A stretch of DNA of 50,156 nucleotides, counting the filler, from Circinaria calcarea (lineage: Eukaryota), in the NCBI GenBank assembly GCA_051942165.1. It is 2 parts of 2 records of this genome, joined end to end, with 100 filler letters (N's around TTAATTAATTAA, not from the genome) between each part and the next. Parts side by side here need not be neighbours in the genome. Positions count along the whole stretch, not along the records: positions 1 to 25,074 come from JAVECS010000098.1; 1 more part is not named here. One strand, written 5' to 3'. The notes under the pieces are model-generated. The model was not told the DNA's origin. It saw only the letters and a program-made list of their open reading frames with translations, and searched no databases. Shown piece after piece: positions 1 through 25,174 of the stretch. Both the position numbers and the translations under genes were made by a program. Positions within the stretch are counted from its first letter, which is position 1; every line of letters starts with the position of its first letter.

Positions 1-1853
1 AGACACGAGATCGACCGAGCTCATGCTAAAGGCATCTGGCTTGATATTGGGGTATCCGGTATCCGAAATCTACGACGGATTTACAAAGGACGATGGCTCC
101 TTTGGATTTGTCTCGCTTTGAGCTCAATTCCACTCCATTTACTGTAATGTTATTCTATCTTCGAGCTATGTGTTCTTCCTGATCTGACTATGCTGCAGAT
201 ATAACTCCGTAATCTTTACATCTTTATCTGCGAACAATTACATAGCTGTGTTAGTGGCGCAAGATTTCCTTAGTGGAGGGCCTTGGACCACAAAGCATGA
301 CCTTCTCGGCGAGGATGTTGCGGTAGTTGGGAATCTCCAAAGGAACATATCATCCCTCAAAAGACTCGATAATACGGAGTGTAAACAAACTTACGGAACG
401 AGCTTCATTTCAACCTATCGGAATCTACTACTGGTGTCCGAAGCGTACAACAACACTGACTCTGTTATAGATATTTACGAGGCCTATGGAATCTACAACA
501 ATAACAATTATCTATGCAGTGGATCGGGGGATTGTGATATCAGCAAGGCGGTACAGGACGCAGCTACCTGGACCATCAAATCATGTTCTCCGAATTCGAA
601 TCGGCAAGGTAGCCGCGAGACATGTACCCCTTTTAATGTTGACTACTGTTTGGCCGAGGCTTCTTCTCCTATTTGTACCGTCAGTTTGAGTCGCCCTCTG
701 CTGGTCGTAGTCATTGTTTGCAATGCCATAAAACTAATATGTCTCGCTTCAACCCTGGCGTTGACATCCTTTGAACCTCTGATTACTGTTGGCGATGCTA
801 TCGCCTCATTCATCAGCGATCCAGATCCGACAACAGTCAACCAGGGTACGCTATCTGCGATGGAAGTCCGCAAAGGAAAGTGGAATCGCTCGAAAGGCCG
901 AAAAATACCAGATGCAACTAATCCAGTAGCATTATCGGAACAACGGACCCGAAGATCCGAGTATTGGTTCAAATCAGCAAGTACCAGGCGGTGGATAATC
1001 TGCAGCCTTTGGTACCTCCCCATGCGTACACATATCCTGATCGAGGGCTCATGCTGACAGATCCTCAAGTTGCTTCGGAGTCTGGACGGCCCCACTGGTC
1101 CTCCTCGGTCTGAACAATACCAACGGAAAGCCCATGGCCCTCTCCGAGCTCTGGGCCCAAGGCTTCGGCACCGTCAGCACCGGTTTTATCATCACCGCGA
1201 CCATCGCCTTACCTCTAACCGCGAATGTCATCGTCGCCAACACCCCTCAGCTCCTCATCTCCTTTGTGGCCGTCTTCTACAACGGCCTTCTCACCTGCAT
1301 GCTCCTCTCGTCCGAAGCCAACGACTTTGCCCGACGCCGGAAGACGTTACGGGTATCGCGGCCCCGTGGGCCCCAGAGGTCGACGTACTGGCTCCAACTT
1401 CCCTACCGCTACGCCGTCCCTTTGCTCGTCGCCATGGGCGCTCTGCACTGGCTGGTCTCCCAGAGCATCTTCCTTGCCCGGGTCAACATCTACGACAAAT
1501 ACGGCCATCTCGCGCCAACCGCCACGTCTAACGCGTACCTGAAACCGCAAAACTCCCTCAGCAGCTGTGGGTGGTCACCCAAGGCCATCATTTTCGCCCT
1601 CATCCTCGGCGGCGCCATTATCCTGACGCTGTACTTATTGGGCTTCCGGAAATATGATGCCGGGATGCCGGTTGTTGGCAGCTGCAGTGCCGCAATAAGC
1701 GCGGCGTGTCATCGTCTCGATGAAGGGCCGGAGGTGGCGGAGTTACCGCTCAAGTATGGCGTCTTGGGCGCGGGAAGTGATAGCGTGGACAGGGCTGGTT
1801 TCGCTGCCGGGGAGGTACGGAGACTGGCAGCAGGTAAAAATGGGTTGGACTGA
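1..1853 (+). CDS. DUF6536-like multi-pass membrane protein, 5'-truncated by the window edge; introns 144-198 and 1012-1069
   Basis: Splicing GTAATG...GCAG (144-198) restores SSIPLHLLYNSVIF. Splicing GTACCT...AAG (1012-1069) joins ORF 248-1057 in frame to ORF 1134-1853. Motifs PLITVGDAIASF, ANTPQL, QRSTYWLQLPYRY, LHWLVSQSIF and GSCSAAISAACH are typical of this fungal family. Confidence 0.8.
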
Positions 1854-1967
1854 AAGTAGCAGAAAGGGTGAGAGGTCTGTGCTGGGAAGATGAGCAGAGA
1901 AATGGCGGCCTCATCCTGCAACCCTTCTTCTCACAGCAAGATTCAACTGGTAAAATGAATATGCTAA

Positions 1968-2107
1968 TTTTAGGTATCTGGGGATTCTCGTAGACTAGCT
2001 ATCAAACGCTCAAGCCATCTTTGGCGGTCTGCCCCTATGCATCCTCAGCTCTTCGGCGCTAGTCCTAGGCCCGGGATTTCTTTGGTTCCTCGCACCGACG
2101 GTCTTAT
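1968..2107 (+). repeat. Direct repeat, copy 1 (140 bp) of the sequence at 17381-17521
   Basis: Manual alignment TTTTAGGTATCT...GACGGTCTTAT: 7 substitutions plus one 1-nt indel relative to copy 2. Confidence 0.97.
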
Positions 2108-2383
2108 TACTTTGGATCGACCAGGCTCTGACACCAGCCAGGATGCCAGGGAAGGCAGATGAGTTGAGATATTTCTAAATCGGGCTTAGTACATGTTGTG
2201 CACGTCGAGTTAACAGCCCGCGAAGCAGCATATTTCCTGGGTTTCGTCGCTGGTGATTTCAAAGACTATAAGCCCTGAATTACTGAAGAATCCTATCGAC
2301 TTTTAGCTGCCGCAAAGGTTGCCATGGCAGACTTAGGTGGCGAAGTGCTAAAACCAAGGGAACTACGGAAACAAGCAGAAGTA

Positions 2384-3335
2384 ATGAGTCCCTGAAGGAA
2401 GTCTCTCCATCACGGAGGCGCTCACAAACGCAACTAAATATCGAGACCAGCGACAAAGCTCCTAGCAAATCCCATCGGACGAGGAAATCATCACAGCACT
2501 CAAAGATCCATAACTCAGGTGTGCAAAATTGTTGGATTAGCTCGAGGATGAAAGTGATTGGACGTTCTCGGATAAACGATTGAAAAAGCTGATAAAGAAG
2601 CATGGGCTAAAAAGCAACGCTCAGGCCGAAATGCACTTGCAGCTCAGCAGCAGCACAGGGATAATAGCACCGTGGTGTTTCAAAATTTAATCTTATGGAC
2701 CCTACGACTATGGAGTCACTCCGATTCGAACATGGCAATCAAGATAAATGTACGTATGACTCCGTAATCCAGCATAAATCTCTTGCATATAGATGGCTGA
2801 CGTAAAAAACTATGCTATAACTTAGATCGCTCATGACAGACTATTCAAACCGGCCGTCCAAGCACCGAATCGAGGAAGCAATCTCGTGCTCAATCATTGG
2901 CTTATGCAGACATTATGGGACCACCATTGGGCAGCTGTGATTAAAGCTGGTGCAAATAAAGAGGATATGGGCCGCCAATTGCAAGCAGAGTAACTGAGAA
3001 TCCTCTTATTTTATTCAATCCTTGAAGCATGCAGCCTGACTTCCCGATACAGGTACGGCGTCAACCCCATCCCCTATCTTCCACCTCCTTCGACCGAAGC
3101 CGAAGTAGAGACAAGAGCAGCCGCTTTCAAGAAAGATGGTATGAAGATGAATCGTGAGATATCCTAAACGAGAGAGGGAAGGCAGTACGTTCCGGTCCAC
3201 GAAAATGGTGAAACCATCTAGCAACTAGAGAGACATGGTTAGTTCGTGATCAAGGTGACAAAGATCGACAAGGGGATCGGATTGCAAGAGTTTTGGGATG
3301 TTTCAAAATCTCGATGCCATCAGACGCTTGAGTGA
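2384..3335 (+). pseudogene. Decayed gene for a fungal hypothetical protein, with multiple nonsense and frameshift lesions (boundaries approximate)
   Basis: Protein-like translated segments interrupted by stops: PSDEEIITALKDP*LRCAKLLD*LEDESDWTFSDKRLKKLIKKHGL, CFKI*SYGPYDYGVTP, LWDHHWAAVIKAGANKEDMGRQLQAE/YGVNPIPYLPPP and ETI*QLERHG*FVIKVTKIDKG. Intron-like GTACGT...TAG and GTAACT...CAG segments lie between them. Confidence 0.6.
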
Positions 3336-4274
3336 GAGAGAGTGGTCAATAGTGATGACTGGCAGAAAAGATATCAGAGAGATGAGCGGACACGGTTCAG
3401 TCTCAGTTATGAGTACTTCACCAAAAGGGATCTAAGGCAGCGGTGGAAGACAATCCCCTTACTGCCTAAGCATTGTTCGGAGCATTTAACTTCCCTAGAG
3501 CGGATCGACGGAAGCCCGCAGGCCAACGCCTAGGGAGCATGTCATGGAAGATGCATCCGAAGCCCGGAAAAGAGCGGATGAATCTCATCAGCCATCATCT
3601 TTGAAGGCTCGTTACCTCACCTGGGATGTTCGAATAAGAAACAATATTTCTTGATAGAGGATATTGCATTGTACACTTGTTACGGTATCATCTTGGATAT
3701 TACCTTGGAGCCATCGGCTGATTCCGATAATGTCTTGCGACATTCTCTCTGGTACCCTTCTTAATGATAGCGTAGAGAATAAACCGCTCAAGCTATTCGC
3801 CCCAGAGAAGGTTGTTTCCATTCGATAAAGCCTCGCCAGCAAATGACAGTACACTATTAACGGTAATGCCTTCTTGATAACCTGTTACAATGAGTTTAGT
3901 CACTTGAACCTGATGGAAGAATGAAAGAACAAGTATGTCCTTAAATGGCTACCTTACTTGACTTGAACTACTTCTTACGATTACCTACTTGTGATTCCCA
4001 TCTGCAATGTTGTCGACTATCCGCAGTAGTCTTTATTTGTTGATAGTATGTCTTGACTGATGTGTATCCCTTGCAGTAATTGTGCTAAAGACCCTAGGCC
4101 GCTTGCCTATTTCATCCTGTTTTCAAACGGCGCAGAGAACTTATGCTTTTAGAAAGTAATTCGTTAAAGGATTTATACTTGTATTGAAGTTAACAGGACT
4201 GAATTCTCTAAGGCGTGGTGTGGAAAGTTAGGCTGCATAAAGACATAGAAGCTGACCGCGATCTTACAGGCCAG

Positions 4275-5415
4275 CTATGCTGCAGGCTTCTGGCCGATTG
4301 TGATGACCCGCTGCAGATTGAATGCAGTGTTCTGGCGATTCTTGCCCACTTCCTCGATCAATCCCCGGGCCACATCCCCTTGCCCGCCCCCTAACCGATC
4401 CAAAACATTGACACTGATTTCTTGGCTTGCCATCATCCAAGTATCTAGCAGCAATGTCACAATTTCTTGGGAAAACTTATGGCGATCCACCACAACATTC
4501 TCGAACCCGTTCTCTTTGAATGTCTCCGGAAGGCGGGTAATCCAGCTAGATGAGAGAGCGTGATTAGCGTAAATATGGATTACGTGGGAGAAAAGAAAGA
4601 GGGCATTTCAAATCAAAGAAAGACCAACCCGCTACTGATGAAGCTTGGGCCTGGCTTCGTTTTGCCTAGTGTAGAGGTGTACTCTCGAAGCTCATTCAAC
4701 TCCTCGTTGGCATGGGAGCTGGCGGAAGGAACTCTGATAATCTCCCATGTATTCACGTCCCATTCTCCCCAGGATATATAGCCTCCTGGCTCTGCCAGTT
4801 ATTGTTAATCAAGTAATTCCCATCAGGATCTTTTTGTTCCATGCATGATCCATTGATTGTAAACTCACTCAGCATTTTCATCAAGTTGCGCAGCATAGGC
4901 ACTGGATTTCCATCTCTTAAGATTGTGATGAACAGCTGCACATGAATGATATCATACTTCTCGAGCAGCTCAGAGGGGGGTTCTGAGAGGACATCGTGCG
5001 TGACCCAAGAGATGTTCGACGGAAGCCATTCCTTCGGCGGGCACTGCCCGAAGTTGATGTCCAAGCCGTCAAGTTGAGCGGAAGGGGGCAGGTTACGAGC
5101 AAGCTCGATAAGCCAGATGCTGCAATAGCGAGAATGGTTGTCAGTCGCTACTTTGGTATTCCAAGTTGAAGGAATGCAAGAAGGATCACCCGGTTCCAAC
5201 CCCTATCTCTGCGATTTTCAGATCTTCCTTTTCTGTAGGAATACTTGGATGAAGGAGGTAATTGAGGCCATCTTTCCATAAATAGTGTTGCAGAGTTGAC
5301 CTGTGGGATAACTCATAAGCTTGAGCAGAGCAGAGTATGTAGATCAAAAAGGCACCAACCTGGTATTGGCGGCAAATCCGCGAGATAACATATAGCTATT
5401 TGGATTACTGTCCAT
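4275..5415 (-). CDS. Class I SAM-dependent methyltransferase, GliN/SirN-like (paralog 1), 5 exons
   Basis: ATG at 5415. Spliced product: MDSNPNSYMLSRGFAANTR|STLQHYLWKDGLNYLLHPSIP...KIAEIGVGTG|IWLIELA...LDGLDI...YDIIHV...ML|KPGGYISWGE...TIGQKPAA*. It has SAM-binding motif I and the LKPGG motif, with canonical GT-AG introns. Confidence 0.88.
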
Positions 5416-6223
5416 TTTATTATGACATCAGAAGGATACCTTAAGGGGAAAAGAGAAGGAGAAGAAAAGGAAAGCCCTCGGGGGGAGGTAAAAGGTACCA
5501 TGTCATCGGACATATTCTATTGGTTCGAGAAAACCCCCCTTGGCCGACGTTTACAACATGCTGAGACAGGAAGAAGAATACCGGAATTATATTATAATAC
5601 ACGCACCTTACACAACAAAACGCTCCATACCGAAGGGGGGTTGGAGAGGATGTACGTTATGATGGTCAGCCCCCAGATGCCGGGTCCCTCGCCAATCGAA
5701 GCAGACACCAAAAGTCCGAGCACCTCAATACAACATCAGCCAATAACGGTTTCATAAACCCCTGTTGTCCCACTCTGGCACCCATCCTCGGGCCGCGCGG
5801 ATTTTCAATGCTTAATTACGGCTCAGCTACACAGCGTGACATCGATCGAAGCCCTCCGAGCACCCTTATCAGCTATTAGCTCCACGCTAAAGCCACTAAA
5901 CATTATGATTAACTGACTCATCTAACTGGTGGAGAACGAGGCTTTAGCTATATAAGGCATTGATCTACTGTGTCGCGCTAACAGCCGATTCCCCTACGAC
6001 CACAGTAGACACGGCATCTCGGAAGTGGTACCATAACACTGCAAATACCGGAGAGCGAAAATACCCGAGTCACCCCCACCATTTCCCTGCATATTGTTTC
6101 AAATGATTTGTATACTAGTCAAGGATCATTGATAGCACTAATGGACTATTATATTTTTATTTAAGGCACATGTTGAGTTCTCAAAGCGGCACCTAACGAG
6201 GGTGAAAGGCACCCTAAATTGAT

Positions 6224-7079
6224 CTAGAATACTTCCCCCGCCGCCCTTCTTAGTACATCCGCCAGCCACTGCGGACGGCTGATCATAAGGCAATGTCCAG
6301 CGTCGCATTTCTCCACAACATCAAACGCACTTGGTTCCAGCTGCCTTGCTGTGTTGATAATCATCTCAACAACCTGGGGTGTAAATGTCGTCTTATCTCG
6401 CTCGCCAATGACGTACGTGGATGGGATATCGCGCCAGGCAGCGTACGTTGTCGTGCTGGAGTAGACTCCGATGCTCTGGTGTGTGAGCTTGGAGGCCCAC
6501 TCATCTCCTTCGTCGGAGGAGAGGTCGTTGTAGAATACTTTCTTCGCATCTTCGGGATCAACATTGACAACCCCTTTCTGGATAGATCGAATGAAAGTCT
6601 TAGTAAACCAGTGACTGGATAAAAGGAGAGAGAGGGAAGGGGATAGCTGATGGGTGATATCTAACCTCAAGGTCCACCTTCATCCAGTCTGGCATCTGGG
6701 CTCCACCGGCAGTCGGTTGGAAACCCTCGGGCATGGCGAATGCCATGATAAACACCAGTCTCACAACCCCACCTTTGAGGCCCTGTTCTTCGCGCTCCTT
6801 CTTGCCAAGCCCCTTTGGTGCCTCGGCTCCAGGCATGCCGGTATATGAATGTACAACAAGGACTACTTCTTTCTCCTCTGAAACAATGAGCTTAGTGAGA
6901 CAATTGCGGATACCATTCACATCTTCAGTGAAGTCCATATTGGCCGGTATAGCGCCAGCAGAGGGAAGTGGTAGGCCAACCGTGGGGTAGCCATGGGCAG
7001 AAAGAGAATCGATAACGCCAGCGTAAATGTCGGGTTTGTGCCAGGCTCCAGGAACGAGGACGATGGTCGGTTTAGCCAT
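6224..7079 (-). CDS. Alpha/beta hydrolase (Abhydrolase_6; methylesterase/SABP2-like), intron 6578-6665
   Basis: N-terminal VLVPGAWH, nucleophile elbow VHSYTG, IPSTYV..ERD and catalytic His in DAGHCLMISRP. The GT-AG intron joins ORFs 6600-7079 and 6224-6670 in frame. Confidence 0.88.
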
Positions 7080-7593
7080 GCTGAGAGATTTCAGTGGCCG
7101 ATAGGGATGTTAGCCTAAGTATAAATGCGAGAGTAAGGTTCTCAAAAAGGGGAAATTATGAATGACGAACAGACAAAGAGGAGAGCTGAGAGGAGAGCTG
7201 AGGCTTATAAATGGAAGAGCAATAGCGGGGCATACCTTTGTATGCAACCATAAGGTAAGGATTTATAGTGGCTTGGTGGCTAGCGATGTCTGTTCTCGGG
7301 AGTGTCAACCATTTAACTTACAGTTTGGCATATGGAGAAGGGAAAGATCCCGCTGCTTTTAGTCGTATATCAAAAGAGGACTTTATGTATACATTGTCTC
7401 AAAGCGGCATTAAAGCAGACATTTGGTCAATTGCAAATTAAGGTTTTTTTGGTGAAGTAATATCCTGGTGTAGACGCGAACCTTAGGCATGTAAGTCTAC
7501 TCGTGTAATAATTTCTATAGCATTTGTACAAGACAATAAGTGAGCTCTCTAGGGCTTAGGCTTTCAAAGTCGGATAAACTCCTATCCACTGCC

Positions 7594-8855
7594 TTACTTT
7601 TTATTTATCGAATTTGTGTCCTTGTCCGAAGCCGTATCGTATCCTAAACCGCTAGTATGACTTTGTGTGGCAATTACATCCGTGAGAGGGTACGGGTCAC
7701 CAGGGAGGCGACGGAATTTGTCGGATTTGGAGTCGCCAGATCGCTTATTTGATCGAGTCAACCAAAGTCTCTTCAACGACGAGTCACCACCCGATTTCCA
7801 ATTCTTGGACCAAGTGAAAATCATGCTGCCGGAGAACTTGGATATCACTGGCTGTAAGATTGGCAGACAGGCGTTTATGACACCAAGCGTTGGCTCGAGA
7901 GAGGTACAGATGTTATCAAGAACGACACTGTATGTGATGTCCTGAAAATTCAGCCTCTGGATTGCAATAACTCGAATGATCGATATAATACAGATACTAC
8001 CAATTGCGATTAGTACATAAACATCTAGGAAGTGGTGCATATAGACTCACATAGCGCCGAGACTGAAGATTGCTGTCAATGAGACCTTTTTCGAGGTTTT
8101 CATCTGAAGACTCCATACTACTGGAAGGGGGAGAGCGACAATAGCCACGTCGATGATCAGGTTAACGATGCCTGTCGACAAATAATATGCTGGCAAATCT
8201 CCACAATGGCCCGATACTGTAATCTTGTTCCAATTGTATTCGAAAGGACGGCATATCAATAAGGCAGTTAGAACAGTAGACAGCCAGTAGGCTATTGTCA
8301 CTGCCCCCAAGGCGTATGCTGCATAGATCATCCTGGGGTTGCGGAAGATCTTACTATAGAAATGTAGGACCGAGACTTTTACGAGTGTGTTGGCAGTTGG
8401 CCATAGCAGCGTTGCGGCCACGGTACTCTGAGGTTGTCAGCTTGTGCTCTTATGCTAGCACCATGTCTTTGCAGATATACTTTGGCGAAAACAGTAAGCT
8501 CCTCAGAACTCAGCGCAATGATGTGCTGTGCGTAGCCTCCCTTGATACTGGCTGTTACACCTGTTATTCCATGCTCATGGAGAACGCTAAGGGAGCGTAC
8601 ATATGACGGAATTGACGTTGAATCCCAACGTGAAAATCTTGGGATAAGCTTAGTACGAGCCCATGCATGAGGATCTGGAAGGCTAAATACCGATGCTACG
8701 AATATCGCATAGTCATTGAAACACAAAGGGGTTCTTTTGAGCCTTCTTGCCCATATTCTGAGAGCGACGAAGACCAACGGCAAAACCGAGAACAATACAG
8801 TGGCACCTAGCACAGCTCTTGCCCGACCTTGGTGAGGACCGGAGAGAGGTGCCAT
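7594..8855 (-). CDS. PTH11-like (fungal rhodopsin-domain) 7-TM integral membrane protein, multi-exon
   Basis: ATG at 8855 (MAPLSGPHQGRAR). Family motifs: FVALRIWARR..NDY, KVSVLHFYSKIF, ICRPFEYNWNK..GHC, NLIIDVAIVALPLPVVWSLQM..KK and LEPTLGVINACLP. No CFEM domain is seen. Confidence 0.85.
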
Positions 8856-9600
8856 GCTGGAGTGAATAAGTAAAAGTAAACGGGAGAGGTTTAATTGAAA
8901 TCTGTTGTAGCTGAACAAAAATGGATTGAGTGTAAAGGTGAAAATAAACTGCGTTACCAACATTGGCCATTCCCCGAAATTTGATGCCGGTGCTGACTTC
9001 CGCGCAGGATCATCACACCATCTTTATTAAACCAGTAACATAAAACGCCCTGAAAGGAGCCTGTACCATTAACCGAAGTCACTTTGCATGCATGCTATTC
9101 CACATACTGGCATAATCTCTTATGGTATGCCGCCTCGATGCAAAGATTGCCGAAGAGCATGCTGCTTTTGTAGAGTTACACGACGTAAAGCATCGGAGAT
9201 TCCCCATTAGAGAAGTGACCGGAAGTCCCCTGCATTAGCTCCCGCATGAATGGATGCCGGAAAAGCCCGTAGCCCGGTTAATCGGGGTTGCATTGCATCC
9301 GGAATCCTAACTAGAGAGCTCCACTGCAGTTAGCTCCGTTGCAACCAAAGACTTTACATGGGCTATCATTGCGCCTCCCCTCCGTTAGGGAAATGTGGAT
9401 CGGTTTACAAATCGCGCAAGCAGCTATGGCTTTGTCTATCAGCACGTGTTCAGTGTTATGTAATCATCTGGTAACGCCTTAGTACTTTGTGTGATTATTG
9501 AGACGAGGAGAAAAGAGCTTGAACTACTACATAGGAATTTCAGTACAGTCTCTTTTATTGCATCGATTGAAGCATCTCTTAGCTTTCATTTCAAGAAGTG

Positions 9601-10702
9601 ATGGTGCCAGTCTCAGCGCAAACAACGGAGAGCACTCCGGTGAAAGACAATTACATCTTATCCCGAGGGTTTGGTGCCAATACGAGGTTTGCGCTTTGTC
9701 GTTCTACTGTGGTCCGGAGTTGATGGCAAACTCTTAGGCAGAATCTCCAGCATTATCTCTGGAAAGATGGAATTGGCTATCTTCTGCATCCTAGCATCCC
9801 CATCGATGTAGAAGACCTACGAGTTGCTGAAATCGGTGTCGGCACTGGGTATACTGTCTTCATACTATCTCAAGCGGACGGAGGTTAATAACATTTATAG
9901 CATATGGCTTGTCGAACTTTCCCGCATCCTAAGACCTTCTGCGCGACTGGACGGATTCGATATCAGTCATGCGCAATGCCCTCCTATCGAATTTATCCCG
10001 TCAAATATCTCCCTGCATATCCACGACTGTCTCGCAGAGCCTCCCAACGATTTGCTCGAACAGTACGATATCATCCATATTCAATGCTTTAACTCTGTCG
10101 TTCCGGACAACGATCCTATCCCAGTTGTCCGCAACATGCTGAAAATGCTCAGTTAGTGTTGTCGCATATCCAAATGTGGTGCCTTTCTGGCTAACAATGA
10201 AATGCCAAACCCAGAACCAGGAGGATATATTTCATGGGGAGAATTCGATTTCCTTTCCTGGGAAACCATTACAACAGCCTCCGCTAGCGGCTATAACGAT
10301 GAGCTCAACACTCTTCTAGAATATAACGCGACTTTCGGCGGCACGCGGCCAAAGCCCAATTTCCTTGCTCACAAGTAAGTCTCAGTTCCCTTCGGGCCCT
10401 TAGGGATACATAGATACCCACAGATATGTAGCTGGACCGCGAAATTGCCTCAAACCTTTTCGGATTTCGGCATGACGAATATCATCGTAGACCGACATCC
10501 GTTTTCAAAGGAGATCGCCACATATTTGTTGGATACATTCATGGTAGCAGGCCAAGAAATCAGTGCGAATGTGCTGGATTCTACTGGGGGCGGGCGGGGG
10601 GATATTGCGAGAAGGCTCATTGAGGAGGTGGGCAGGAACAGAAGAAACATTGGACTCGGCCTGGATCGGCTGACGGTCATAGGGCAAAAGCCGATAGCGT
10701 AA
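9601..10702 (+). CDS. Class I SAM-dependent methyltransferase, GliN/SirN-like (paralog 2), 5 exons
   Basis: ATG at 9601. Spliced product: MVPVSAQTTESTPVKDNYILSRGFGANTR|QNLQHYLWKDGIGYLLHPSIP...RVAEIGVGTG|IWLVELS...LDGFDIS...ML|KPGGYISWGE...TVIGQKPIA*. It has the same four intron positions as paralog 1. Confidence 0.88.
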
Positions 10703-11065
10703 AGCTAAAAATTTACTTTATTAATATTATAAAATCATCTAATTTTTCATCGGCTTGAAGTACTCCAAATACAAACACTAATACCACAAAAGTTTTAGAA
10801 GTAATTAACCTTAAAGATTTATGTCTAATAAATATAGACGGCTCATTGCTGCCGAGCTTTAGGGCGTTTCTATTTTTGGGAAAATAACATAGAGGCTAGC
10901 AAATATCTCCGCATTCGTAAATACGTTTCTCTAGGCTTGGTCCCGAAAAGTGGAAATCGGGTGTAAGACCTGATGTATACGATATAGGCTTTGCGGATGT
11001 TAGTAAAAGCATTGCCTTCAGCGTCAAAATTCTTTTCTTCAGCTTTATCTAGACTTATTCGCCCC

Positions 11066-11296
11066 CAGCGCCGCCAGTAGTCCGGACTGTGGACTGACAG
11101 TCCAGCTTAACAGTCCGAAACATGTGTGGAAATTGCAGGCAAGTAGGGCGTTGACTGGGAAATATATATGTACGTAGTAGAAGTTGGCACGTGCGTATAT
11201 GTTTCCCAGTCAACGCCTTGTTTGCCTGCAATTTCCACACATGTTTCGGACTGTTAAGCTGGACTGTCTGGACTGTCTGGACTACTGGCGGCCCTG
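11066..11296. mobile_element. Foldback MITE (~231 bp) with ~100-bp inverted arms; hAT-like CAG...CTG ends
   Basis: Left end CAGCGCCGCCAGTAGTCC and right end GGACTACTGGCGGCCCTG. Arms 11066-~11168 and ~11196-11296 are near-perfect reverse complements. Flanks TTATTCGCCCC / TGAATCGCCCC may be a degenerate TSD. Confidence 0.85.
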
Positions 11297-11420
11297 TGAA
11301 TCGCCCCTTTAAGGACATGATCATCCTTAATTATCTTCAAATCTCGAACGAGGTTTTTTACTTTGCGTTGCTAAAGGGATAGGTTACAAACGGTTAATGG
11401 ATTCTCATTGTTACGGGCTT

Positions 11421-13444
11421 CTAAGTTGATTCGTTTTCCAAAGGAGTGAAGATAAGTTCCAGTTTCCCAGGTGCTGCCGTGAACTGATCTTTCATATCCT
11501 TCCAAACCCTGATCCCATCTTCCCCAGGCGCGAAAGTTATGTCATACTTACTCACTAATAGCGCAGTCACGAACCGCACCTCTGCGAGCGCCAAGTTCTT
11601 CCCTACGCAAGCAAAGCGGCCAATGCTAAAGGGCGTGAAAGCTTTCCTATCCGCCACCATCTCAGGTTTAGAATACCATCGCTCGGGGATGAACTCTGCG
11701 GCCTTTTCGAAAGACTTCTCGACTGCAGGGGAAGTTAGACCTTTCCTTCTTCTATCTCAAAGTGGATTAAAGCGAATAGAGAAATGGAAGGACGTACGGC
11801 GACCCATTGTATAGCGCGGAGATACGATAGTGGTGTTTCCGGGGATGAAGTGGCCCGCGATCTCAACACCTTGTGGAGGACTCTCGCGATAGCCGCCGGT
11901 TGGGACCGAGGGGTGTAAGCGAAGTGTTTCATTTATCGCGCCATTCAAGTGGTCAAGAGTCTTCAAAGCCTTTGTGTCGTAGATAGAAGGGATGGTATCC
12001 AATTCAGTGCGGATTTTTTTAGCATGCTGAGGCTCTAAAGCTAGACGGTAGAAGAGGTAAATCATAGTTGACGCAACCGTGTCGCTGTTGGTCATCAGTC
12101 AATATAATGAGATTCGTGACTCTATTGGCCAGAACTTGCCTGCCAGCAACGATTAAAGCTACTGAATCACCATTTAGCCAGAACTGATCTTCCTTTAAAC
12201 TGTTCTTCTTTTTGGAGCCGTCGATCAGCCATGAAGAAATCTGCGCATCAATATCAGCTTGAAAGTCAAGCCTATATACTAGCGAAGATAGCATACGTCA
12301 GGTTTGTCCACTTCAGTCTGAATAAAAAGCGTGTGTTAGCTTACATTATGCTGACGTGAACAGAGGAAGAAGCCTATTGCTTACATGGATTCGCTCACCC
12401 ATACGTTCGGCACACCACGAAATCATCTTATTCCAGTCTCGTACAACTGGGATCACTGGGAAGCTGAAGGCTAGCTGAACTAGCCAGGGTACAGAGCTTA
12501 AAGGACCTAGTAGATTGAGTGCCCTTCGCAGCATTAGAACAGCATAGTGCCATTCTTTACTCTCCAGCATTTTGAAAGACTTTGCAAATGCAAAGTCTCC
12601 CATAACATCAAAGCTAAGAAAGTAAAACCAAGTTGAGACGTCTACTGGTTTCCCAGAGGTACTTGCGATATGCTTTTCAAGTAGCAACCCATATGTCTGG
12701 ATACGCTTTTCATAACCCTCCAGAGCTGTCAAACAAGGTATTAAGAATAAACTAGTTTCTCTGAATGAAGGAGGCTAACCTTTTACAGTAAAAGCGCGGT
12801 CCCAAATCCGGCGACGGTGGTCATGCTCCTTCTTATCTCGAGTCGTATTAAGAGCAATGAGTGGCAGAAGAATATCGTACCAAACCGCTTTATTGCAATG
12901 GTTGGCAGGACCGTCAACTGCCCATTTGACTTCCGGTGTAAAGATAGTTATTTCAGTTGGACCTTCAATATTTCATTGTAAGCTAGGAAACAGATATTTT
13001 ATAGAATAGCTCTCTCCTCTTACCAGTTCGCACAAAATCCCCGTATTTCTCGTGCAAGCCGTCTAGTAAGATATGATTCTGAGAGTCCAATGTATTTGCG
13101 GTATGCCAAAGTTTGGTGACGCCCGCCATAAATGGACCTGGGAACTTGCGCAACCGATGAAAACCTTTCCGGTAGATGACAATGCTTGTTAAGAGCGAGA
13201 GAGCGTAGGCAGCGAAAACTGAGAGTGTTTCCATAACACCACGGAATGCGCTTTGATTCTTGACTGCAATCTCCCCATACAGCAAGATAAAACATAGGAT
13301 TAAATACAACCAGAAAAGTATTGGAGCCTTCATATGATATTCACCGTAGATGTAAAAACAAAGATGCGAGGCAATGCCAAATACTGCTGCCACAAATACT
13401 TCCTCCAACAACGTCCAGTTGGTCGGAAAAGTTGACAATAACAT
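11421..13444 (-). CDS. Cytochrome P450 monooxygenase, multi-exon, with a short TEVDKPD exon and one GC-AG intron (12085-12139)
   Basis: ATG at 13444, then N-terminal TM segments, FPGP hinge, I-helix AG|SDT, K-helix ETLR, FIPERW and heme motif FSIGRFACVGKNLA. Spliced exons appear in frame. Confidence 0.93.
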
Positions 13445-14196
13445 AATGAAATATTTGTTTGCGTTACAATAAAGCTTGTTAGTAATAGAGAAGTTGATTA
13501 AGTGTGAAAACTTGTGGGGAGAAGATGTTGACAGTAGACAGAATAGGAGGAGAGTCTGGGCGAGGTGGTTCTTACTGAAAAGTACATTCGTGATTCTGCT
13601 TACCTTGCACCACACCACATTAAATTACCGATCAGTCTTAAATAGCCAACAGGTAAGAGATGTAGATCCCCTGACGCAATCCCGTTAACCAGACAAGTCA
13701 ATTGTGCCAAGATACGGAAAATACCGAACATATTCTGTTGAACTCTCCACAAGAGCGGGAGGATTCAAGTGCGAGGCACACCTTGGGTAGAAGGGAAAAG
13801 TCCGAGTGGTGGACGGTCTCACGGCACAGTCTGTCGGCTTGGGATTGAGTTCTAGTAGGATTGGACTGTTACCTTGGACGCGCACTCTCCACAATGGGTG
13901 GTTCAATTATGAATGTTTCAGTGGCCATGCACTTCCTTGCAGCTGGCTTTCCTACCACATTGCCCGAGGTGTGCATACTACGGTAGGCAACCCTGGCGTT
14001 TTAAGCTAAAATATAGATAGCCAGGCGCAGGTATGCAAGATCTCCTTAGACCCCTCTGTACTATTGCGGCGACTGCAGCTGGAGGGTAGGGAATATTTGA
14101 GCCAAAAGCGCTCACGCCTAAGCTCACACATGGGTAGAATAATCTCTGCACCTCATCACCATGCTAGTAGATTACATGCTCAGCTCCATCCTCCAA

Positions 14197-15069
14197 CGAG
14201 CCGTCTCCGGACAGTACGCTTTCGCCAAAGTTTGTACTGTCCGAACCTTCGGTGCATGGGTGGAGCGGGGACTAAAAGCGAGTTAGTGGAGATGGCTGGG
14301 ATACAACCATGCTTAGGGTTGTATTGTAGCTTAGCTTCCATACAAACTTACCGCACACAATCAATCTTCCCACTTTTCTTCCATTTTTCTCTCCCAAGTC
14401 CCCCACACACATAGAATTGTACATTCTTGTAATACAATACGAGCCAATTGCTAATTAGTATAATAATTTAACATACTATGGAGCCTACCAATTTTTCCAC
14501 CTCTTTGCCAGCGGAGCTCATCCATTCAGTGACCCCTGAGCTTGCTGGCGCAATCAGGAAAGCCACAGAGAGGCTATACCCGAAGCGCATCGACGTCGGC
14601 CTGTCCAGGACGACGTGGTGGAGTCACTAAAGGTCGGTTTTATTCGCCTGCAGGATTTCGCAACGGAAACGAACTGTGGAGGCAGCGGCGGCGAAGGAAG
14701 CGGCGAAGGAAGCAGCGAAGGGAGCGAAGGAAGCGGCGAAGGTGAAGAAGGAAGCCAAGACGCAGGCAAAGGAAAGGAAGATTCGTAAATCGAAGCTAAT
14801 ACGGACCAGCCAGATATTCGATTCATTCGTGGATCCTAGTCAGAGGTACGAATTAGTAATTAGAAGCTCATAGTAAATACATACATATATTACATATATT
14901 ATTGCGCATTATAATGCATTCCAATGCGCAACATCTATTCGAATTACTATATGGCTTATGAATATATTACTAGTACTAATCTACTGAATTAGTGCCCGCT
15001 CCACCCTTGCACAAAAATAGCGGACAGTACGAAACTTTGGCGAAAGCGTACTTGTCCGGAGACGGCTCG
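14197..15069. mobile_element. Non-autonomous Mutator-like (MULE) DNA transposon, 873 bp
   Basis: Long (~80 bp) imperfect TIRs: CGAGCCGTCTCCGGACAGTACGCTTTCGCCAAAGTTT... and ...AAACTTTGGCGAAAGCGTACTTGTCCGGAGACGGCTCG. Perfect 9-bp TSD ATCCTCCAA at 14188-14196 and 15070-15078. No intact transposase inside. Confidence 0.88.
14688..14742 (+). repeat. Imperfect 12-bp tandem repeat (GCGGCGAAGGAA) inside the MULE
   Basis: Directly visible; would encode AAKEAAKEAAKGAKEAAK. Confidence 0.8.
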
Positions 15070-15229
15070 ATCCTCCAAACATGGCGGTCTTACTCAAGTA
15101 GGAAACATGGGTTTTCCGTGGAAGCCTCTACTTACGCACCACATATCTGCCGATAGCGCTGAGATTCTCTCAGCCGTAACCTAATTTCTTTGCCGTTAGA
15201 CTACCGAAACGGGGTCCGGCAAATAAGCC

Positions 15230-15489
15230 TAGCGTCGCCAGTAGTCCCAACGGTCTAGTCGGGCTCTAAGATTGTGGCTGCCTTGGCAGTCCAGAATCTG
15301 GAGCCGAGGGTATATTCCTAAATCGTAGAAGAACATACAATAGGGGTAGGTTATCAGCCTGGACTGATAGCTTAGTCCAGTTCACTACCCCTAGACTGGA
15401 ATGTTGATCCGCCCTGTGAACTATTAATCCCACTAAGAGTGTGACTGCAGTCCACCAGTCCAGTTCAGTCCAGGCTACTGGCGGCGCTG
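15230..15489. mobile_element. Second MITE of the same TIR family as 11066-11296 (~260 bp)
   Basis: Ends TAGCGTCGCCAGTAGTCC and GGCTACTGGCGGCGCTG. Many internal AGTCC/GGACT motifs, as in the first copy. Flanking 8-mers AATAAGCC / ACTATGCC (6/8 match) are consistent with an eroded 8-bp hAT-type TSD. Confidence 0.75.
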
Positions 15490-16037
15490 ACTATGCCGCA
15501 CAGATTGCGGCGATCATACATTACATCGGAGTGATAATTTGTATGTGCCGGCATAAATTACTAGGGTTCGACACACTCACTTACTAAGAGCCTAAGTCAT
15601 GCCACCCACTTATATGCTTCAGAGACTAAAATACATTACAGTTGGACTAAGTACAAGACATTATAAAACATAGTAAGGAACGCTCAACTATTCTGCGTTA
15701 CTGATCAATGCTACGTATGCGGCATCTGCTTGTTTCAGCTCTATGACGAAGTCCAAAGTCTAAGCAACTATCCTCCTCTACTTGTTGATTGGCTGATACT
15801 GTGAAAGATAGAAGTACCCTGCCAGCTCAGGGTTCCAAAAGGCTCACCAAGCTGAATTCAATAATCCGTGCCTCTGCCACTCGAGATAATGCGTTGCATT
15901 TCCGGCTCCTTCTATGCATTCCATTTTCAGCTCCTTCTGTGCGTTCCTGCAAAGCTTTATCTTGTCAACTCAATCAACCTTCCCGCCCTATCAGTCGAGT
16001 ACTTAACCCCTCAAGGAATCTTATCAAAGTACTAAAC

Positions 16038-17084
16038 ATGAGGAACCAATGTGTGGAAAAGAAAACCCTCACGGAACCACATCAGGTAAGAGACCTGTAT
16101 ATATATTTTATAACCTTACAAGGTCTGAAAATGTCCTGGTGCTAACTAGTACTAACTTGTTTGAAGGCAATGAAACATTTTCAAAAAAGGAAATCACTGT
16201 TCTATCACGTATACACAATATGGCTTTTTACCCGCAGTGACCTGAAAACGATCGTCATTCCAAGTACGGTTTTTGGCGTGGTCTGTACTTTGTCGGGACC
16301 AGTACTAACGACCAATCCGTCGCCTTCGATACTCGACACTGGAAAGCGTCTACCAATAACCGTGTATTGGGTTTGGGTCAATCTATTACCGTTCGCGATA
16401 GATAATCAGCGGCAGCCAGAAGGCATTAAGGAAGACATCGAAAACAAGGCCTGGAGACCACTACCATCGAAGAGGTTAACAGCAAGACAAGCGACTTTGC
16501 TGATGCTGGCGTTATATCCTGTAGCATTTTTATCCAGTCTATATTTCGGAGGGATATGGCAGTGCATCATTCTAATGGGCCTAGGATATTGGTACAATGA
16601 TCTGAAGGGAGCCGATAGCAGTTGTATAACCCGGAACTTCATCAATGCCTGCGGTTACATTTGCTTTATTTCTGGATCCTTTGAAATCGCGTTCAATTGT
16701 TCAGTTGCTTTCCTGGAGCCGGTGGCCTACAAATGGGTCCTCACAATTGGCCTGGTAGTCCTTACCACGATACAATCGCAAGACATGTACGATCAAGCTG
16801 GTGATAGCCTCCGCAAGCGTTGGACTGTCCCGTTGGTAGTTGGGGACTCGGCAGCGAGGTGGACTATTGCAGTCCCTATAGGAATCTGGTCCTGGGTTTG
16901 TCCAGCATTCTGGCAGATTGGCGTGGAAGGTTTTGCGACATCCACCGTCTTAGGGATCATCATCATTTGGAGAATCTTCTTGAAGAGAACGGCCGAAGCG
17001 GACAAGACTTCGTTTCGAATTTATAATATGTGGATGGTTAGCCTGTACTTGTTACCATTGCTAAAAAGGTTAAGCGAGTTTTAG
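16038..17084 (+). CDS. UbiA-type membrane terpene cyclase (Fma-TC/Af520-like), intron 16086-16166
   Basis: Exon 1 (ATG 16038-16085) splices GTAAGA...AAG in frame to ORF 16161-17084. Multi-TM protein with TIWLFTRSDLKTI, NQRQPEGIKEDIENKAWRPLPS, WYND..G and QDMYDQAGDSLRKRWTVPLVVGD, the motif set of the fungal UbiA-type terpene cyclase subfamily. Confidence 0.85.
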
Positions 17085-17380
17085 CAACGCCGTTGGAGAT
17101 TGACGACATGAGCTTCAGACGATTAGACTCATCACCTACCCTGGTTTCTTCCACCATAGTCCAAAAGTTGAGAACTCTATAAAGTGGGCAAATACGTCAA
17201 ATCGTCTCTTTCAAAGTCTCGAGCAGCCAGGCTAATGACCAATGTAACTCACGGTTTCTTCCATATTGACATTGCGAGAAAAGGCGAGAAGGTACTAACC
17301 CAGGTTTTGATGCCGGACCTGATGACCTATCCCGTAAGCTCTTTTCTTGCAACGAGAAACTGATGAAAAGAATAGGCAAG

Positions 17381-17521
17381 TTTTAGGTATCTAGGGATTC
17401 TCGTACACTAGCTATCAAACGCTCAAGCCACCTTTCGTGGTCTGCCCCTATGCATCCTCAGCTCTTCGGCGCTAGTTCTAGGCCCGGGATTTTTTTTGGT
17501 TCCTCGCACCGACGGTCTTAT
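17381..17521 (+). repeat. Direct repeat, copy 2 (141 bp); begins 27 nt downstream of the EB1 stop codon (likely EB1 3' UTR)
   Basis: ~94% identical to 1968-2107 in the same orientation. Confidence 0.97.
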
Positions 17522-17547
17522 CACCACTAGTCAGGGGTATTTGCTAC

Positions 17548-18670
17548 TCAAAATGTCTCCAGATCGTCCCCAGCTGCTCCCTCCGCTTCTGCGGGAATCT
17601 CGAATCCCTCCTACGGGTACCATCCATGTCAGTATTGTGTTTCGTGAACGTGAACTGTACGACTCACCTCCGTCGAGTACAATATCGCCTGGATATGCTT
17701 CACCAACCCTTCCTCGTCCTTTTCAATCTCCGGATCCGCCTCGATGGCCTGCTGCACGAGCAGCTCAATATCTCTGAGCTTGCTAAAGTAGAAATCCCGC
17801 TCCCGCTCCAAACCCGCCACTGTCTCCTTCAACTGCGCGTTCTCCTGTGCCACCGCTGACGAAGTCGCGCTCCCCCCAATTGTCCTTGCGGGCCGTACAG
17901 CGGTGGTTTTGGTGGGAGTGTTGCCTCTTCGAGCAGCCCCAGCACCGGATGTAGATGTACGAGCTGCCGATACCGCTGCCGGTGGAGGAGCCGCCGCGGC
18001 TCCTGCCGGGGCGCCTGAAGCTTTCCGCCGTGCGATGGCGTCGTATTCACCACCGGGGAAGTATTGGTCCCAGAAGCGCTTAGTCCATTGGAGGAACTCG
18101 AGGTTATCTTGCATTTTACACTTTACAAGGTTTTCAATGGGAACGAGGCGCTCGATCTGATGTTTGGTAAAACAGTCTGTGAGGTTTAAATAGTCAGCTT
18201 TCAGGGCCTTGCGGTTTGAAAGGAGAGGGGAGTGATACTCTGAAGAATTTTGAAGTTCTGAAGGTAGAGGTATTCGGTGTTCACGTTGAATTTTACTTTG
18301 GACATTGGTAGGTCCTCTGAAAGGGTTAGTGAACGAGAGCTCGTCAAGGTGGCGTGTACATCGACGCACGGAAGATGCTATCGTAAATTTGACATAACGC
18401 GGCCCTGATGGTTCAAAGCATGTCAGTCTCGACTCAACTCCTTCATATGCAGCCATATATGGGCCTTTACTCTCTCCATCGGTGGGGAATGGTCTGGTGG
18501 GAGAGCGTACCCTGTTCCACACTGCTCGACTCTAGTAATGTTGAGTTGTAGTAGGTTGTTCATCCATGCCAATAGCTCCTGTCTGGTTGGGGGCACGTAT
18601 CAGCAACGGACACTGAGGATCAAGTGACTGTAAACGTTTTGGATGCCTGTGTTTACCTTGATTCACCCAT
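17548..18670 (-). CDS. BIM1: EB1 family microtubule plus-end binding protein (Bim1/Mal3), multi-exon
   Basis: CH domain MGESR|QELLAWMNNLLQLNITRVEQCGTG|AALCQIYDSIF...KCKMQDNLEFLQWTKRFWDQ, EBH domain LERERDFYFSKLRDIELL, and terminal exon EGFEIP...DLETF* (TGA at 17548-17550). Confidence 0.95.
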
Positions 18671-19172
18671 CTTGGGCGGCGTCTGAAGATTTGGACCAGG
18701 TACACGGTTTGGGAGCAAGGACGTTTAGATAGGTTGAGAGGAGTGGGAAGTAACCTCCGGATATGCAGTACAGTATCAGGTTGATGTCGGAGAGGTAGTT
18801 TTTTGGGCTTCACTGTCACGATTGGAGCAGTAAATTAGTTGCAACGCTTATCCGCCAATCATCACGCGAATTAGAGCTTACCAGATTACTGACATAAGCT
18901 CGAAGGAAAAGCCCTAATTTACGTCATTCATTGAGGCTAATGGTCTCATTTGAACTGGGCAAGGTAGTTCTTTTTGTTCTACAATTTTTAACTCGGGAAA
19001 GAGAGCAAGAAGATACAGATGCATTACATGTTTTGCAATCGGACACCGTCAATGAGCGCAATAAGCGATGCGAATTCTACACTCCTGAAGCTAAGCCCTT
19101 ATTCAGCAACTTGCCACCGCTAGAACCGATGGAGTACAGCGTCGAAGGAAAATCAAGATCTATAGGAATTGG

Positions 19173-19190
19173 TCACGTGAGATCACGTGA
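19173..19190. promoter_or_regulatory. Tandem palindromic E-boxes TCACGTGA (Cbf1/bHLH-type), ~500 bp upstream of the EB1 ATG
   Basis: GG-TCACGTGA-GA-TCACGTGA at 19173-19180 and 19183-19190. Confidence 0.4.
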
Positions 19191-19273
19191 GTGCTTATGT
19201 AATATGAACTAGTCTATTTACTATATAGAGATCTCGCGTAATAGCAAGCAACATCAGCTTGGAATAATACAGA

Positions 19274-21426
19274 TCAACCTTCAAGTAACTCTACGCCTGG
19301 TAGTTGATATCCAAAGTCCATGACGACAACCCGACTGTCCTGGCTCGCTGCCACGATCCTTCGATAATCCGACTTGGCTGCCAACATCCAGGAAGTAGTC
19401 CATCCGGTAAAGTCACAAATCACGTCACCTGTATGGCTATCAAAGGCCTTGACACTTGTATCGTAGCTACCGCTGATAATCCTGCCGTTCGCACTGTCAA
19501 GATATAGCGATCTGACCAGATCGCGATGTCCCTCGAGCGTTCGTATCCGTTTCCCTGTATTTGCGTCGAATTGGTAGATGACCTGATCATTCCCCCCTGC
19601 TAGAATAGTACTAGAGTCTGGACTGAACTCCACACAAGCCATGCCTCGATCTTTGCTTGGAAACTCCTTGATGCAGAGTCCGGATTCCAGGTTCCAGAGC
19701 TTCGCGAACCCATCGCCACTTGCAGACACAACCAGACTACCTCGTAGTTGGACTGCGTTGACAGGACCTCTGTGTCCTCGGAGAACTCGGAGAAGATGCC
19801 CAGTCTGTCGGTCCCAAAGACACAGGGACGAATCTTTCGAGCAGGAAACGATGTGCTTCGCGTCAAAGCAGACATCAAGCACCCCTGCTTTGTGGTGACG
19901 AAGCCGCCGATTAGGCTTATAGTCTTCCTGAATGTCCCATATGATTAACGTGTGGTCTGATGAGCCAGTAATCATAATGTCCTTATCAAACTGCAAGCAC
20001 AAAATGGAGCCCTTGTGGTGAAGGGAAGGGTCCGCTATGAAAGAAGGTTCCTCATGCCTCGAGGCAGTGATGGAAATTGTGGGCTTCCGTCCGCGGCTTG
20101 TCACATTGGCTAATGGCTCATTCATGTGAATGTTGCCAGGCTTTGGAACGCCCAAGACTTTGATGCACTTATATGTATGAGCGTCCCAGACTCTCACAGT
20201 CCGATCTCTGCTGCCGGTAACTATCTTGTGCCTATGCACGTCTTTAGCATTGATTGTACTGGAGTAGGGGTTTACTCACTCGTCAAATTGAACACAATAG
20301 ACACTATCCCTATGGCCTTCAAGGTATATCGCTGCAGCAGAACTGCTAGTCCATCGGCTTTGAAGTGCTTTACGTATCTTCCACATCCTTTTCCAGTTCT
20401 GGTCTGGTCTCTCCTTCCCTAAGCCAAAGCCGCCAACGTCAACAATGGGCATGTTATCCGGAGAAGGGAAACACGGCAGGCCAAATTCTCTCCAGAAAAT
20501 ATGTTTCCAAACATGAGATGAGGCTGCCGTACGATGCCATCGGCGGGAGACGAGGTCAGCGTTGATAATCGAGGCTGCGTCAAGGTAGGATAAGATATGG
20601 GTTACAAGCTCCTCTGGTAGGGAGTAACTCGGGTCTAGTGATAGCCGGTTAGTCGAATATAGGATAGCTTTCCACTAATAGCAATAGAATACCAACCCCG
20701 TCTAACGACTGGCAGCGTATTGTCCATGTAATCGAATTGCCCCCGAACTTCGATGCCAACACCGCTCTCAGAGTCATTCGGCACCTTTGACTCAGTCGAC
20801 TTTAAATCTTGACGTGGTACTCTTGTCCGCTTTGCTTCGAATTTCTCGTTTTGCGCAGCGGCTGCTGCCCTAGCTGCGGTACCACCAGCTACTGTGCACG
20901 GAACAAATGATGGTTCTATACGCGTACTCGGCGAGATTGAATTGACAGGGCTTTGAGACGTGCTATTATGTGTTGTAAGGGTCTTAAGCAGAGAAGGCCG
21001 TCGACTGCGGCCAAAGCTTGTGCTTGCGGCGCGTCGAAGCCAGTTGGGAGAGGGCGGTTGATCTGGATGATCGCGCTCACTGTCGACCGCAGTACTGCTT
21101 TCCCTATCACACAAACCGATGATTGATCGCATTGTTCTTTGTGGGAAGGAGCGAAGGTCACATAACGCGTCACCAAATGATGCCTTCCGAAGCCGACGAG
21201 GTTCATGGCTGGGCGAGATGATTGGAGACTCCGGCTCTTCGAGATGTTTTTCAATGTAGAAAGTGTTTAGAGTAGTCTTGAGGTCCATCAATGAGCCTCT
21301 TTCATCGTCGATGTATGAAGAGCCATTGCAAGTATTCCCTGTCAACCTGAATCCTTGAAGTGACCCTGTCCTTCTTATGCATTCCTTCTCTTTTGGGGAT
21401 TTAGCCAACAGTTGGGATCGTTCCAT
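19274..21426 (-). CDS. F-box/WD40 repeat protein (beta-TrCP/Pof11-like SCF substrate adaptor), two introns; start codon uncertain
   Basis: F-box DPSYSLPEELVTHILSYLDA after intron 1. WD40 repeats GHRDSVYCVQFDE|HKIVTGSRDRTVRVWD, HKGSILCLQFD, HKAGVLDVCFD and GHRGPVNAVQL. Confidence 0.9.
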
Positions 21427-25074: not shown

Positions 25075-25174
25075 NNNNNNNNNNNNNNNNNNNNNNNNNN
25101 NNNNNNNNNNNNNNNNNNTTAATTAATTAANNNNNNNNNNNNNNNNNNNNNNNNNNNNNNNNNNNNNNNNNNNN
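25075..25174. other. Assembly gap or contig-joining spacer (44 N + TTAATTAATTAA + 44 N)
   Basis: A symmetric 100-nt spacer whose core has stop codons in all six frames; artificial. Confidence 0.97.

Follow-up and report, generated by a model that had tools for sequence, protein, structure and literature searches.

A predicted terpenoid gene cluster of Circinaria calcarea was gained or lost as one block between a DUF6536-family gene and EB1

The window analyzed here is a stretch of 50,156 nucleotides (filler included) from Circinaria calcarea, of which positions 1-25074 are a single contig (C98) of a fragmented short-read lichen MAG (31.5 Mb in 5512 contigs); the remainder of the window is other contig sequence behind N spacers. 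On this contig, a DUF6536-family gene on the left and EB1/BIM1 on the right enclose six genes with open spliced models (GT-AG or GC-AG introns), a pseudogene, and several repetitive inserts, and the whole block lies between two copies of a direct repeat (Table 1).

Table 1 Features of the locus, in window coordinates
Feature	Position	Strand	Remarks
DUF6536-family gene, 3′ part (left flank)	1..1853	+	ORFs 188-1057 and 1041-1853; PF20163
Repeat copy 1, left diverged extension	1908..1967		67% to 17325-17380
Repeat copy 1, core	1968..2110		Sharp end at 2110, a single abrupt junction; by alignment
Pseudogene, fungal family of ~250-270 aa	2412..3764	+	No Pfam match; 17 stops in read-through frame, some intronic
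Putative SAM-dependent methyltransferase 1 (MT1)	4275..5415	-	283 aa, 5 exons, open; 61.5% identical to MT2
Short dispersed repeat	5867..6009		Matches on at least 11 other contigs
Alpha/beta hydrolase	6224..7079	-	255 aa, open model; PF12697
Fungal rhodopsin-domain (Pth11-like) membrane protein	7594..8855	-	353 aa, open model; PF20684
Putative methyltransferase 2 (MT2)	9601..10702	+	292 aa, open model; paralogous to MT1, in inverted orientation
MITE-like palindromic insert	11064..11296		Matches on at least 13 other contigs
Cytochrome P450	11421..13444	-	551 aa, open 7-exon model; PF00067
Non-autonomous TIR element	14197..15069		TIRs ~80 bp; perfect 9-bp target duplication
Second MITE-like insert	15228..15490		Ends related to 11064-11296; no other full genome match
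UbiA-family membrane protein, predicted terpene cyclase	16038..17084	+	321 aa, open model; PF01040
Repeat copy 2, left diverged extension	17325..17380		By alignment to 1908-1967
Repeat copy 2, core (EB1 3′ flank)	17381..17524		By alignment
EB1/BIM1 microtubule end-binding gene (right flank, core gene)	17548..18830	-	5′ end approximate; PF03271

The UbiA-family gene adjoins the P450 gene, as in UbiA-type terpene cyclase clusters. Homologues of its product include one named beta-trans-bergamotene synthase (49%), and the protein is probably a UbiA-type terpene cyclase; a PDB sequence search returned no solved relative. MT1 and MT2 are putative methyltransferases by their motifs; MT1, searched as single exons, gave no significant Pfam match. 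The first-pass annotation had described the block as accessory genes with a pseudogene and three transposable elements (TEs). The three TE-like inserts hold up, and one of them, the TIR element, is presumably Mutator-like; the count of three does not, as the short dispersed repeat makes a fourth. RIP indices gave no strong signal in the block. The inserted TEs and the pseudogene suggest that the block has resided here for a long time.

UbiA-type cyclases and P450s appear to be linked in other fungi as well. When P450 homologues were compared against the best 120 of 509 cyclase matches, 7 of 21 non-self homologues, all of them among the 12 at 65% or above, had a cyclase homologue on a contig of equal size (by eye). 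Species names also agree in three of these pairs (Lojkania, Lophiostoma, and Amniculicola), and three further cluster members pair likewise with equal-sized contigs in other fungi. The C. calcarea genome itself has cyclase matches on 16 other contigs (at most 52%); on 13 of these, a related P450 was found on seven, a rhodopsin-domain gene on six, a hydrolase on two, and a methyltransferase on one, as against zero, one, zero, and zero loci, respectively, in a 600-kb control. EB1, by comparison, had no equal-sized contig in common with cyclase or P450 in other fungi among the best 120 of 1015 EB1 matches (by eye), so that this comparison gave no second instance of the cluster beside EB1. The P450 tree is poorly resolved, with partial proteins, long branches, and the window's own database copy left out, and we therefore make no claim of horizontal transfer.

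Clusters of a UbiA-type cyclase with a P450 are a known class giving oxidised sesquiterpenoids; one survey describes 326 clusters of a UbiA-family gene with a P450, several of which gave such products (PMC5895447). Our block resembles the Fma-TC type of that survey in having a membrane UbiA-family gene beside a P450, and is unlike it in carrying two methyltransferase-like genes, a hydrolase, and a Pth11-like protein around a cyclase that is itself putative (PMC5895447). We read the block as a genuine terpenoid gene cluster, of a real type of unit, plus debris.

The left flank is less straightforward than first described. The 3′ part of the DUF6536 gene is indeed in the window, but most of the domain lies on an overlapping contig (C458; overlap 141 nt), where it is split across two frames, and the gene is apparently frameshifted at the contig overlap. 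Its last exon is GC-rich (GC 0.47 vs 0.61). The family has matches on eight contigs of the genome, representing seven loci, so the left flank is also accessory.

Global alignment of 1968-2107 with 17381-17521 gives 133 identical columns out of 141, with five transitions, two transversions, and one gap, exactly as reported in the first-pass annotation. The placement of the copies is likewise confirmed: position 17521 is the 27th base beyond the EB1 stop (TGA 17548-17550, minus strand) and position 1968 the 115th base beyond the DUF6536 stop. The repeat is longer, however, than the ~140-bp core first recognized. The core extends by 3 nt to 2110/17524 (135 of 144 columns identical), and homology reaches further left, where 1908-1967 and 17325-17380 agree in 41 of 61 columns (11 transitions, 3 transversions), with a score equalled by none of 300 random segments and none of 300 shuffles. 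Left of 1908/17325 the similarity is marginal, with 69 of 2000 random segments as good, and weaker similarity may reach ~17270; a by-eye search of 17085-17330 found no DUF6536 coding remnant. On the right, in contrast to this gradual edge, there is no homology past 2110/17524 and the repeat stops sharply.

Divergence between the copies is markedly uneven. K2P values are 0.06 for the core as against 0.33 for the left extension (Fisher p 2.6e-6), the differences are clumped to a degree equalled in 2 of 5000 permutations, and the longest perfect run common to both copies is 38 nt. A high-copy dispersed repeat is not what we see: the own-genome search gave two matches for the 140-mer, both in the window, such match counts being lower bounds (at least two). 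No Rfam family was found in 1-20000, the repeat folds no better than its shuffles (z 0.0, -0.5, and 0.7), and a 21-nt pattern from it had no match in viral contigs.

Such bracketing is also rare. A unique direct repeat of at least 100 bp occurred in none of 15 control stretches (40 kb from the start of each of the 15 largest contigs, 600 kb in all), although these contigs are probably gene-dense core and may understate the rate in accessory regions. Two shorter repeats turned up in this control, a 69-bp pair in near-tandem arrangement and a pair of 73 bp that is also on another contig. Among the 13 contigs with paralogous cyclases (4-18 kb, which may end inside clusters), three had direct repeats of at least 40 bp (C532, in tandem, C253, and C2110), and in no case was the cyclase bracketed.

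The first-pass annotation predicted an empty site with the two flanks adjacent and a single repeat copy, and one biocrust metagenome contig has precisely this arrangement. The contig (3509 bp, depth 7.7, from one run) is the sole evidence of an empty site. It runs from sequence matching 1507-1955 through 31 letters similar to 1956-1985 into 17398-18438, with more EB1 and F-box pieces after that; the joint from 1955 to 17398 skips 15,442 bases. For an empty form, the predicted spacer from one stop codon to the other is ~280 bp. Its genes are ~92-95% identical to those in the window, and since 64 of 1041 EB1 bases and 37 of 730 F-box bases differ, we assign it to a related species rather than the same strain. 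The relative's DUF6536 part has many 1-nt insertions and one large skip, and the gene is probably broken there. The metagenome run that yielded this contig has zero cover on all six cluster genes, a figure that is meaningful only in combination with the joint. Two other metagenome runs, of three examined in all, gave short unrelated matches alone. Scanning metagenomes with the EB1 segment gave four loci, all distant (34-56%); none of them shows homology to DUF6536, the cluster, or the F-box gene, and they thus carry no synteny information.

The relative also permits a three-way comparison, covering 30 bases, with 206 of the relative's differences lying outside the comparison. Over the 12 nt that adjoin the core on its outside, every pairing of the relative, copy 1, and copy 2 shows four differing sites; over the initial 18 nt of the core, the relative departs from copy 1 at one site and from copy 2 at two (both by eye). 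The divergence gradient between the repeats thus looks like the normal between-lineage conservation gradient of the EB1 3′ flank, as far as these sequences can tell.

The absence of visible mobility machinery, noted at the outset, stands. We found no captain and no transposase Pfam in the ORFs scanned within the block, and no inverted pair at the block ends. Starships have a captain at the 5′ end (PMC11162782, PMC10104507) and direct repeats of 2-16 bp (PMC11162782); here the first gene is not a captain, being the pseudogene, whose family has no recombinase match, and the repeats are far outside that range, so the block is not a canonical Starship. For the pseudogene itself, no recombinase or transposase signal was found; its family has 40 matches, weak HTH matches below the cut-off were seen in 2 of 13 homologues tested, and an Atlas search using a natural homologue returned no match. 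The features of TIR DNA transposons such as hAT and Mutator (end TIRs, a 2-11 bp target duplication, and a transposase) were not found at block level. An LTR or TRIM retroelement was considered and rejected, as the repeat gave two matches in the genome and is present once in the empty site. We also considered contig C2245, which has two block pieces in swapped order, as a trace of a circle, and rejected it: the intervening 2.4 kb is not homologous to the block.

What, then, brought the block and its repeats together? It had been proposed that the cluster entered as one unit, either by integration of a circle carrying host sequence or by break repair with a long target duplication. The empty site bears out the unit: the cluster was gained or lost as one block between DUF6536 and EB1. 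It does not support entry as the direction. A plain one-step duplication is not supported because even divergence and two sharp ends would be expected and neither is seen, and the circle fits on condition that the host copy had already diverged. Ordinary recombination, not dedicated mobile machinery, is most likely behind the gain or loss.

Our leading explanation, on which we are evenly divided, is that two long-diverged alleles were joined. In this view the repeats would represent a short DUF6536-EB1 intergenic region in two allelic or orthologous versions, copy 1 deriving from an empty haplotype (DUF6536, intergenic region, EB1) and copy 2 from a second haplotype in which the cluster already adjoined the EB1 3′ flank. 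Homologous exchange, either within the conserved 143-bp core or on the side of EB1, would have combined the haplotypes, together with one illegitimate join at 2110/2111. A circle could have done this by a single crossover with the core, or a linear donor by recombining on one side, and the resulting sequence would be the same; only host repair would be required. Supporting this explanation are the single copy at the empty site, the contrast between the two edges of the repeat, its two levels of divergence and their parallel between species, the lack of a recombinase match in the block, and the rarity of the configuration in this genome. The direct repeat would be a by-product through which the block could in principle be deleted, and such deletion would be rare given the 6% divergence and the short longest perfect run. 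We infer the second haplotype, the order of events, and excision: filled and empty forms alone were observed, and no haplotype turned up in which the cluster adjoins EB1 and copy 1 is lacking.

A plain duplication followed by gene conversion, or by selection at the two 3′ ends, could produce the same gradient as allele joining. As the second possibility we tentatively entertain an old insertion by break repair with a long target duplication (at least 200 bp). Copy 1 would then serve the 3′ end of DUF6536 and copy 2 that of EB1, use or conversion keeping the cores alike while the rest decayed, and the relative would either predate the insertion as a separate lineage or have shed the block when the repeats recombined. 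This history accounts for a single copy at the empty site against a pair here, the identity step at 1968 resembles the end of a conversion tract, and the inserts and pseudogene fit a long residence. Templated copying does occur in this genome, as sub-kilobase pieces of the block are found elsewhere (716 bp at 93% and 796 bp at 87% on C2245; 244 bp at 79% on C458). On the other hand, an extra step is needed for the six-fold uneven divergence, the left boundary is not sharp, and a DUF6536 gene that is apparently frameshifted here and broken in the relative points to weakened selection on copy 1. We think it improbable that a recombinase-free circle of the cluster with a piece of the EB1 3′ flank moves in and out by host homologous recombination, across strains or species; if it did, the EB1 3′ flank would be a natural attachment site and the locus a reversible on/off metabolite switch within lichen populations.

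More doubtful still is a captain-less or derelict mobile island, Starship-like, with its recombinase acting in trans and the repeat as the equivalent of an attachment site. The genome does encode DUF3435 recombinases (21 matches, including at least one open frame of 617 aa), the Hephaestus-family motif TTAC stands at the end of copy 1, and related cyclase clusters sit at many loci; but none of the DUF3435 matches is on C98, the filled locus lacks the conserved A at the position 8 nt after TTAC, copy 2 reads TCAC, the repeats exceed the Starship range, no second whole copy of the block was found in the genome, and the paralogous cyclase contigs show no bracketing. An assembly artefact, i.e., a chimera of two genotypes, we consider very improbable. 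The MAG is indeed a fragmented short-read assembly and the inner junctions come from assembly alone, but the 38-nt longest identical run is far under the 141-nt contig overlap, the 2110/2111 junction lies in unique sequence, and an independent relative is collinear on either outer side.

Among bacterial genomic islands, those that duplicate a target gene's 3′ end use an integrase and a short core. Our locus is like them in that the 3′ region of a host gene is kept intact by a carried copy, and unlike them in that no integrase and no short core were found. In yeast, GAP1 is bounded by LTRs. At GAP1-type loci, as here, direct repeats around selectable genes permit loss or circle formation by host recombination (PMC8150848), whereas in our block the repeats derive from a single-copy host 3′ flank, differ by 6%, and share a longest perfect run of 38 nt. 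Starships share with our block a multi-gene cargo, a clean empty site, and repeats that arise from homology between element end and target (PMC10104507, PMC11162782); our block differs in having no 5′ DUF3435 captain, in its size (15 kb) and its single locus in this genome, and in repeats ~10 times the longest given in the text of PMC11162782 (16 bp).

Whole-cluster gain, loss, and idiomorphic alleles have been described before (PMC5711037, PMC6367777). As in Aspergillus fumigatus, where clusters show syntenic presence/absence or replacement with TEs in and around them (PMC5711037), the cluster here is present in one lineage and absent from the syntenic site in another; unlike those alleles, it comes with a 140-200 bp copy of unique host sequence on both sides, and the term "direct repeat" is absent from the main text of PMC5711037. 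In the main texts of a largely non-subscription literature, we found no described case of unique host repeats of this length around a fungal cluster. We regard the locus as a probable one-off in which a cluster of a known class is present or absent as a block, with ends resolved to the base and flanking homology of unusual length, and not as a demonstrated mobile element. Decay of the breakpoints tends to obscure how fungal clusters come to a locus or leave it. With single-base breakpoints and an empty site available at this locus, a route that needs no captain, whether alleles joined or a circle integrated by host recombination, becomes directly testable. As an isolated instance the locus would make a neat case study, whereas the discovery of circles or of a third allele would place another route of cluster movement beside Starships.

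Two small features of the empty-site contig, at individual letters of the repeat region, also favor the joining of two alleles (both by eye). Its T-run matches copy 1 in length (one letter missing at 17486), T-run length being unstable, and a 4-nt insertion behind 1888 matches the sequence upstream of copy 2 at 17317-17320.

Putative UbiA-type cyclase genes are expanded in this genome, with own-genome matches on 16 further contigs. A Pth11-like rhodopsin-domain gene often lies beside such a cyclase, on 6 of the 13 contigs fetched versus a single locus in a 600-kb control (the first 40 kb of each of the 15 largest contigs), and a P450 does so on 7 of the 13. The putative UbiA-type cyclase, the P450 and the Pth11-like rhodopsin-domain gene thus form a recurring terpene cluster-plus-receptor module.

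Pieces of the terpenoid block also occur elsewhere in the genome. In the degenerate rhodopsin piece on contig C2245 (L030), the differences are biased toward C-to-T/G-to-A (27 of 50), and a 58-bp piece is common to C2245 and C458 (91%), the contig that overlaps the window start. The direct copy on C458 (L031) adjoins a HET-domain gene and falls outside the repeats, ~3 kb to the left of window position 1. Several further DUF3435 captains are present in the genome besides the tabulated one, and are partly broken.

Coordinates of features in the genome and window
Feature	Location	Details
DUF3435 Starship captain	C363:948-2339	617-aa open frame; close to contig start
Degenerate copies, two block pieces	L030 (C2245) 498-1212, 3630-4421	order swapped relative to block
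Direct copy of block sequence	L031:5686-5908 vs window 3676-3918	244 bp, 79%
Putative UbiA-type cyclase loci	C525, C532, C984, C874, C253, C1616, window 7594-17084	own genome
RRM, PIF1 helicase, YjeF/FDF, RA-domain, cyclophilin genes	window 25175-50156
Inverted repeat	window 37018-37155	37-nt arms, 92% complementary; 64-nt gap

Left of the block, the DUF6536 gene switches frame exactly at the C458/C98 contig overlap (L031:8900-8925/window 1-10), which reflects a true frameshift, a polymorphism within the thallus or an assembly error. GC content shifts abruptly within this single gene, from 0.47 in the penultimate exon to 0.61 in the final one (window 1071-1850).

Window 25075-25174 is an N spacer with a stop-codon linker between separate contigs, and 25175-50156 is non-adjacent DNA. 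The inverted repeat in this portion is probably a small MITE, and the window has an AT-rich end at 49000-50000.
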